This document shows, piece after piece, positions 25,204 through 25,676 of a stretch of 36,590 bases of DNA. The stretch is from IMG/VR virus record IMGVR_UViG_3300029996_000144. The stretch is one strand, 5' to 3'. The notes beneath the pieces are model-generated. The model searched no databases, had not been told where the DNA came from, and saw only the letters and a list, made by a program, of their open reading frames with translations. Every line of letters begins with the position of its first letter. Within the stretch, counting starts at the first letter, position 1. Source of the stretch: a virus. Position numbers and translations under genes: made by a program.

Positions 25204-25626
25204 TTACTCGACTTCTTTGCGATCTACTTTTAAAAGTCCTTTAAGCCCAAAATGATAGGCTATGCGGCTGCGATACGATATACACGCCATGTGAAAAGCG
25301 CAAAAAGCAATAATTACCTCGCCGACCGTTAAGGGCCCGTTGTCAGCGCTGAGGATTCGATGTGCGGCGTAGGCCCCCGCGAAAACAGTTACCGTTTCGC
25401 AATTGACTTCCGGCAACTTAAATATCTCCATTAATATCTCCACGAGCTTCTCCCCCATTTCGTGGGTTGCCTTGCCTCCGATAGGCCCCGCAAAATAATC
25501 GATTGCAGCCCCGTTGATCTCGGCCGGCGCGTCTAAGTCCAAAGACTTCACCATTGCCCGAACGCTTTCAACGTCCAACCCTTCGAGCAATTTATCAATT
25601 GCTCCCGTAACTTGTTCCGTTTTCAT
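25204..25626 (-). CDS. Hypothetical protein (140 aa). Its ATG is fused to the 3' end of an A51 tract.
   Basis: ORF in the early operon. Its start codon shares its A with the homopolymer. Confidence 0.45.
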   Translation of the reverse strand: MKTEQVTGAIDKLLEGLDVESVRAMVKSLDLDAPAEINGAAIDYFAGPIGGKATHEMGEKLVEILMEIFKLPEVNCETVTVFAGAYAAHRILSADNGPLTVGEVIIAFCAFHMACISYRSRIAYHFGLKGLLKVDRKEVE

Positions 25627-25676
25627 TTTTTTTTTTTTTTTTTTTTTTTTTTTTTTTTTTTTTTTTTTTTTTTTTT
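25626..25676. repeat. Homopolymer T51 (A51 on the minus coding strand) that makes up essentially the whole intercistronic spacer.
   Basis: Direct reading: 51 consecutive T between the TAA of gene 25679..26827 (plus CT) and the ATG of gene 25204..25626. Confidence 0.9.

Follow-up and report, generated by a model that had tools for sequence, protein, structure and literature searches.

The locus described here lies in an IMG/VR contig (IMGVR_UViG_3300029996_000144), and the whole stretch of 36,590 bases that was analysed is called the window below. The window looks like an essentially complete genome of an uncultured human-gut phage of approximately 36-38 kb. Both of its ends bear the same 33-nt tandem array, with about five copies at each end and 93-96% matches, and the contig has the appearance of a complete genome, either circular or terminally redundant, that was cut within the repeat array. 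These end arrays may also lie behind the spread from 36.0 to 38.0 kb among related contigs. The structural arm is on the plus strand (in the sister contig L029 it has both the terminase and the portal), and the replication arm is on the minus strand, where genes are found for a family-A DNA polymerase, a VapE-like primase-helicase, an SNF2/DEAD helicase, a single-stranded DNA-binding protein of the Gp2.5/Enc34 type, and a hydrolase with the metallo-beta-lactamase fold. The RNA gene search returned no Rfam family and no tRNAs.

Other tandem repeats are present in the window (Table 1). A 65-nt unit occurs in 3.7 tandem copies with 97% matches and a 13-bp hairpin in each copy, within the low-GC divergent intergenic region that separates the minus-strand replication arm from the plus-strand structural arm. 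These repeats are candidate iterons, a candidate origin, or candidate stacked terminators or operators, and shorter repeats of 15-16 nt lie near them. Elsewhere, a minus-strand ORF contains 9.7 copies of a 15-nt unit. In the sister contig, the product that matches the position of this ORF has Pfam Pentapeptide and DUF5758 matches, and thus the phage encodes a pentapeptide-repeat protein.

The feature under study is a poly(A) tract about 2 kb into the minus-strand (early/replication) arm, between two co-oriented genes. The upstream ORF comprises 380 aa if read from an ATG or 382 aa if read from a TTG, and gene calls in relatives give the 380-aa product. This product matches the SbcC-like PHROG families phrog_77 and phrog_1499, and it has weak Pfam matches to AAA_23 and SMC_N, both under the curated cut-off. 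The downstream gene encodes a protein of 140 aa that matches no PHROG and no Pfam family. Homologues of this protein fall into 79 clusters, none with a Pfam annotation, and many of them are on contigs of 36-38 kb. The protein is predicted to be all-helical, and an AlphaFold2 model made with 22 sequences had a mean pLDDT of 44 and is unusable.

Table 1. Positions of the tract, its flanking genes and other elements in the window
Feature	Position	Strand	Basis
Pure poly(A) tract, hypervariable mononucleotide microsatellite	25626..25676	minus	Sequence; 5-47 A's at the site in 35 related contigs
Invariant TAA-CT: stop of the upstream gene (25681..25679) and two-base spacer	25677..25681	minus	TAACT precedes the tract in every relative
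Upstream gene, SMC/SbcC/RecF-like ATPase	25679..26821 (ATG) or 26827 (TTG)	minus	ORF, PHROG, relatives
Downstream gene, 140 aa, ATG abutting the tract (25626..25624)	25204..25626	minus	ORF
Predicted hairpin at the end of the ATPase coding sequence	25686-25715	minus	
Weak promoter-like match inside the end of the ATPase gene	25752..25724	minus	9 of 12 consensus positions
65-nt tandem repeats	28871..29112		3.7 copies
15-16-nt repeats	29139-29185, 29244-29280		
15-nt tandem repeat inside an ORF	15084-15228	minus (ORF)	9.7 copies
33-nt end arrays	1-264, 36360-36590		About five copies each

On the minus strand the junction reads ...GTG TTG CAA TAA CT (A)50 ATG AAA ACG GAA..., and on the plus strand TRF reports T51 with 100% matches in the 36,590-base window. 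The first T of the plus-strand run is the A of the ATG, so that the tract consists of 50 leader A's plus that A. Thus, the first-pass annotation, which gave TAA-CT-A50-ATG on the minus strand with the run abutting a start codon, was exact. Its statement that the homopolymer forms the whole spacer between the genes is nearly right: the spacer also holds the CT, and a length of 51 nt is reached only by counting the A of the ATG. The T51 run is the sole homopolymer of at least 8 bases in the window, which has 55.6% GC and 21.8% T, and the chance of such a run at one position is approximately 0.218^51, or about 1e-34. Since the window holds no second homopolymer of at least 8 bases, chance is ruled out as an explanation of the run. 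In general, bacterial and phage genomes very seldom contain homopolymers of more than about 15 nt.

In the window, both ORFs share a frame (TAA CTA (AAA)16 ATG), and read-through of the stop codon would fuse them via a linker of 16 lysines with one leucine (CTA) before it. When the number of leader A's is a multiple of three, the 140-aa frame extends upstream without a stop to an ATG within the last part of the ATPase gene, and gene callers then give an N-terminally extended product, MAEYHQIFGAAIT-(K)n-MKTEQ... (P0026, P0032, P0039, P0069; region 25700-25626). This extended product is probably a calling artefact; if the upstream ATG is used, the MAEYHQIFGAAIT extension would be a length-dependent alternative product. 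Just 5′ of the stop codon and the tract, a small hairpin, GGCCGAAUAUCAUUAGAUUUUCGGUG, is predicted within the end of the ATPase coding sequence. Its stem bases are kept among relatives, and the variable positions that were seen are in its loop.

The composition of the DNA changes at this site. The ATPase gene has 65-70% GC overall (63-75% in 200-nt windows), whereas the block of small genes downstream of the tract (23800-25600, compared with the ATPase side, 25700-27600) has 45-52%. This sharp step, from about 68% to about 50% GC, coincides with the tract and marks a compositional, possibly modular, boundary. No site resembling an intrinsic terminator was found between the ATPase and 140-aa genes or at the tract, and no G+C-rich hairpin adjoins the T run on the plus strand. 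The sole promoter-like match nearby is the weak one inside the end of the ATPase gene (Table 1). The simplest assumption is that the two genes would be co-transcribed.

Relatives of the locus were gathered as DNA from IMG/VR, from JGI and ENA metagenomes, from Logan, and from NCBI, and the records named are human-gut metagenomes. The same gene pair with a TAA-CT-(A)n-TG junction, where n includes the A of the ATG, recurs in 35 further contigs, which come from human-gut assemblies made independently. Wherever a contig spans this region, the ATPase gene is followed by TAACT, an uninterrupted A run, and then the TG of the start codon. Adding the window brings the number of intact junctions to 36, among which one contig is represented twice. 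The run length n is 5-47 in the 35 contigs and 51 in the window, with a median of 15 over the 36 junctions. Values of n at the low end are 5, 7 (three times), 8 (four times), 9, 10 (three times), 13 (twice), 14 (three times) and 15 (seven times); those at the high end are 16 (twice), 17 (twice), 19 (three times), 22, 23, 35 and 47, followed by 51 in the window. By source, the JGI and ENA contigs have n of 5, 7, 7, 10, 13, 14, 15, 19 and 19, further Logan, ENA and NCBI contigs have n of 7-23 and 35, the IMG/VR contig L001 has n of 47, and another IMG/VR contig, L002, stops inside the tract. As sequenced, then, the allele in the window is the longest seen at this junction. No mod-3 pattern in n was found over the junctions, as is expected of non-coding sequence. 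The tract is pure A in all relatives, even at 35-51 nt, and it is lost in none, the minimum being A4 followed by the ATG.

The variation in length is also present among genomes that are otherwise the same. Two groups of near-identical contigs were compared, within each of which the contigs encode exactly the same 140-aa protein. In one group, an ungapped comparison found 0 mismatches over 820 nt of flank, and yet n is 7, 8, 9, 10 or 13. The second group, whose flanks of 820 nt show 0-3 mismatches, has n of 15-22. When loci of 3.4 kb were aligned, the tract was the sole internal indel in one group, and in the other group the tract and one 9-nt indel were found. Since contigs with identical flanks differ in n, the tract behaves as a mononucleotide microsatellite whose length turns over much more quickly than point substitutions accumulate. 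The first-pass annotation had expected hypervariability in length, and the range of 5-51 over the 36 intact junctions, together with differences between flank-identical contigs, bears this out.

A neighbour-joining tree of the flanks places the window (A51) as sister to L029 (A35), and L001 (A47) in a different clade, beside L032 (A23); L011 (A19) lies beside L008 (A5) and L009 (A7). As the long alleles are in two separate clades, expansion has taken place more than once, and shortening of the tract has recurred as well. One Logan contig (L036, from SRR28001091, 377-417) has a compound junction, A17-TG-A7-TG-A7-TG-AAAACG, in which three copies of the 9-nt unit ATGAAAAAA stand in tandem and provide in-frame alternative starts (MKKMKKMKT...). 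The triplication of ATGAAAAAA adds another type of slippage product at the site of the tract.

A run of this length raises the question of whether it was made or inflated by the library or the assembly, for example through a chimera joined by way of poly(A) or through collapse or expansion of the homopolymer, with the true genome having a short A run; the first-pass annotation had allowed for such an artefact. Homopolymers of 50 nt are handled poorly by short-read assemblers and polymerases, the IMG/VR relative L002 breaks within the tract, and many of the IMG/VR contigs with A runs of at least 40 have them at contig ends. Furthermore, the long alleles of 35, 47 and 51 all come from non-Logan assemblies, the Logan contigs having 22 or fewer. 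Logan, however, is a k=31 assembly, in which real long tracts would break the contigs, and the absence of long alleles from it is what would be expected if such tracts are real. The lengths 35, 47 and 51 match no usual k or k-1 of the SPAdes or MEGAHIT defaults, which counts against an artefact, and the alleles of 35 and 47 were assembled independently from other samples. In addition, 35 other contigs show the two flanking genes side by side in the same order, joined by the same TAACT...ATG sequence; since independent assemblies agree on this synteny and junction, a chimeric join can be dismissed. Altogether, an artefact can largely be set aside as regards both the presence of the tract and its position, technical origin of the long run by either route is very unlikely, and the 51-base A run is probably real. 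The figure of 51 itself is the consensus of an assembler, which Illumina or PCR stutter can shift by several bases, and the true tract may be longer.

Runs of this kind are rare in viral contigs and not unique to this phage. A scan of 2.9 million IMG/VR contigs found A/T runs of at least 40 at 120 or more loci. Among the matches listed there are at least 38 internal runs in at least 35 loci, 40-187 nt long, and many of the other runs listed are terminal or in contigs of giant viruses or probable RNA viruses. For instance, an unrelated gut phage contig of 41.4 kb (L037, IMGVR_UViG_3300045988_099991) has an internal 45-nt A/T tract (3167-3214) between two plus-strand genes. There, the coding strand carries poly(T), about 20 nt before the next ORF.

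No near relative turned up among deposited phage genomes or in GTDB genomes. Searches of the INPHARED cultured phages, by blastn with 5 kb and by tblastn with the 140-aa protein, gave no match. A scan of GTDB genome contigs with protein and DNA patterns likewise gave no match, no prophage copy and no clue to the host. The nearest cultured-phage homologues of the DNA polymerase are approximately 31-34% identical and come from phages of both Bacillota and Phocaeicola. The Bacteroides -7 motif TAnnTTTG is found 12 times in the window, against 10.4 expected, and thus shows no enrichment overall; three of the copies are in the divergent control region.

The gene leaders of the phage help to place the tract in context. 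SD-like 4-mers (GGAG, GAGG, AGGA) at positions -18 to -5 are found in 4 of the 41 gene leaders of the window, against a background of 9%. In the same 41 leaders, the frequency of A is 0.44-0.51 at positions -11 to -14 and 0.46-0.49 at -16 and -17, against approximately 0.23 genome-wide. This forms a hump of A at -17 to -11, and the leader listing of L029 gives a similar impression. Thus, the earlier premise that the leaders are A-rich and SD-less holds for this genome, with SD-like motifs in 4/41 leaders against 9% and A at 0.46-0.51 over -17 to -11. The tract itself has A at each position from -1 to -50. In the predicted RNA fold, the whole tract and the AUG are unpaired in both the minimum-free-energy and the centroid structures.

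In Bacteroidetes, A at -3, -6 and -11 to -14 promotes initiation, for which a low degree of structure is also important (Baez et al. 2019, PMC6847099). The phage resembles such initiation regions in that its leaders lack an SD and are enriched in A at -17 to -11, and in that the region of the tract is unstructured. Alleles with about 14 or more A's fill all of the positive positions reported for Bacteroidetes (-3, -6 and -11 to -14; PMC6847099). By contrast, natural Bacteroidetes initiation regions are A-rich and not homopolymeric, and no benefit is known past about -14. This bears on the further suggestion of the first-pass annotation that the tract could be an extreme translational enhancer, which finds no support as it stands: close relatives have no more than 4-20 A's, the positive positions that have been published end at about -14, and these data do not show 50 A's to outdo 14. 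A long run is not required, since there are relatives that manage with only 4-9 A's.

Taken together, the tract is probably a real microsatellite in an initiation region, where it would provide an A-rich unstructured leader whose surplus length arises by slippage and is tolerated. Its setting would be the initiation region of the second gene in a co-oriented pair, an SMC/SbcC-like ATPase followed by the 140-aa protein, and the ancestral junction would have been a short, SD-less and A-rich one of the form TAA-CT-AAAA-ATG. Once an A run exceeds a few bases, replication slippage would alter its length far faster than point mutation does, and lineages would come to wander between about 5 and about 50 A's, the longest allele seen being that in the window. 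We infer that the run would serve as an unstructured adenine-rich leader for SD-independent initiation of the 140-aa gene, with A's beyond about 14-17 being surplus that is tolerated and not required. Extra length would be tolerated, and nearly neutral, because poly(A) cannot fold and cannot create a spurious AUG or SD. Slippage of RNA polymerase on such a tract is plausible as well.

Among the observations that count against this explanation are that the tract is never lost and that there is no obvious defect in replication fidelity that would account for such long expansions. The DNA polymerase of the phage keeps the ExoI (LDFET), ExoII (NAEFD) and ExoIII (YAATD) motifs. An exonuclease-deficient polymerase was considered as a cause of the expansion and rejected, as all three motifs are present. 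The purity of the tract, even at 35-51 nt, fits recent slippage and equally fits selection for an uninterrupted A leader.

Selection of this kind is the basis of another reading, in which the tract would be an adaptive expression rheostat of the contingency type: its length would be selected and would set the output of the 140-aa protein relative to the upstream ATPase. The effect could be exerted through leader length, through the distance for re-initiation after the TAA, through mRNA stability, or through RNA polymerase slippage, and the high mutability would supply the phage population with a standing range of expression levels. The tract is indeed kept in every relative and is always uninterrupted, it differs in length between otherwise identical genomes, and it is positioned exactly at the start codon. 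In poxviruses, a poly(A) leader of 3-51 nt affects translation in a length-dependent manner, with an optimum near 12 (PMC5595341), and the median n of 15 at the phage junction places A's over -11 to -14, the positions that are important in Bacteroidetes (PMC6847099). Nevertheless, n forms a wide continuum between 5 and 51 without preferred classes, and purity and retention are also expected of a neutral repeat dominated by slippage. A rheostat is unlikely. It is also quite unlikely that the tract would be the equivalent, written into DNA, of the poly(A) leader of poxviruses, acting as a selected and self-mutating translational rheostat whose length determines the output of a 140-aa early protein under SD-independent (Bacteroidota-type) initiation.

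The tract might alternatively act at the level of DNA, with poly(dA:dT) serving as an origin unwinding element, a packaging or nicking site, a promoter spacer, or a recombination joint. Poly(dA:dT) is rigid and easily melted, and the tract lies in the replication arm, at the GC step from about 68% to about 50%. In a four-gamete test covering 420 nt on each side in 29 contigs, with site pairs counted as if independent, failures were commoner for pairs that span the junction than for pairs at the same distance on one side: 12/25 (48%) against 212/1188 (18%) at less than 100 nt, and 301/454 (66%) against 56/151 (37%) at 300-420 nt. This suggests a recombination boundary between the ATPase and 140-aa genes. 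The signal is small, however, the sites being counted as independent, and it is expected at any gene boundary of a mosaic phage. In addition, alleles of 4-8 A's are found in healthy-looking, near-complete genomes, promoter hexamers are not found on either side of the tract at any spacing able to survive variation of 5-51 nt, and the 65-nt tandem repeats in the divergent intergenic region are a better candidate for an origin. A function of the tract as a DNA element is thus most improbable. An origin unwinding element with conserved extent and adjacent repeats was considered as a class and rejected, the extent of the tract being 5-51 nt and the iteron-like repeats lying about 3.2 kb away.

Read as a microsatellite in an initiation region, the tract can be compared with several known systems. 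By the features tested, it is a hypervariable mononucleotide SSR, i.e. a perfect 1-nt array whose copy number varies between near-identical genomes. Contingency SSR loci are found in several bacteria and in some phages, for example as poly(G)/poly(C) in Campylobacter, Neisseria and Haemophilus, and as poly(A) in the vlp promoters of Mycoplasma. They usually have 8-20 units and either frameshift an ORF or alter the spacing between the -35 and -10 promoter elements. The phage tract resembles them in being a perfect mononucleotide repeat next to a gene start, with a copy number that varies, presumably through slipped-strand mispairing. In contrast to these loci, it fills an intercistronic leader, reaches 51 units and has no frame constraint; it is also carried in the replication module of a lytic-type phage and not by surface-antigen genes, and an on/off effect is not part of the likeness. 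Thus, it differs from the classical SSR cases in its length (up to 51), in its position in an intercistronic leader and in the phage replication module that carries it. Poly(A) tracts are also known from the reduced, AT-rich genomes of the insect endosymbionts Buchnera and Blochmannia, where they are approximately 10 nt long and lie inside coding regions, and where transcriptional slippage rescues frameshifts. In both cases long A runs are tolerated and prone to slippage at the DNA and RNA levels, but the phage tract is non-coding and lies in a genome of 56% GC.

A closer resemblance in appearance is to the 5′-poly(A) leaders of vaccinia post-replicative mRNAs, which are 3-51 nt long and confer a length-dependent translational advantage (Dhungel et al. 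2017, PMC5595341). Those leaders are non-templated, being made by slippage of RNA polymerase at the TAAAT initiator, and they are at the capped 5′ end of eukaryotic mRNAs (PMC5595341). Both systems place an uninterrupted A run of heterogeneous length directly upstream of a viral AUG (3-51 A's in vaccinia, 4-50 here). In the phage, by contrast, the tract is DNA-encoded and probably internal to a polycistronic bacterial mRNA, and the heterogeneity is found between genomes. Membership in the poxvirus class of leaders was rejected, as the A's are templated in the DNA.

The tract has consequences for the handling of this phage family. It accounts for assemblies of the family that break or disagree at the junction, and a systematic survey of long homopolymers in viral contigs would perhaps be worthwhile. 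If the extra length is merely tolerated, the tract is a curiosity with practical use for assembly and strain typing, and it may serve as a strain-level marker in time series of gut metagenomes. If it does act as a rheostat, each phage population would hold a ready-made allelic series, the 140-aa protein would perhaps enjoy privileged translation during infection, and the series of 5-51 nt would give a handle on leader length and S1-type recruitment in SD-less bacteria. The locus offers a clean case of microsatellite dynamics in a phage, and its alleles, from 5 to 51, form a natural series in which leader length and adenine content vary in SD-independent initiation in Bacteroidota-type systems.
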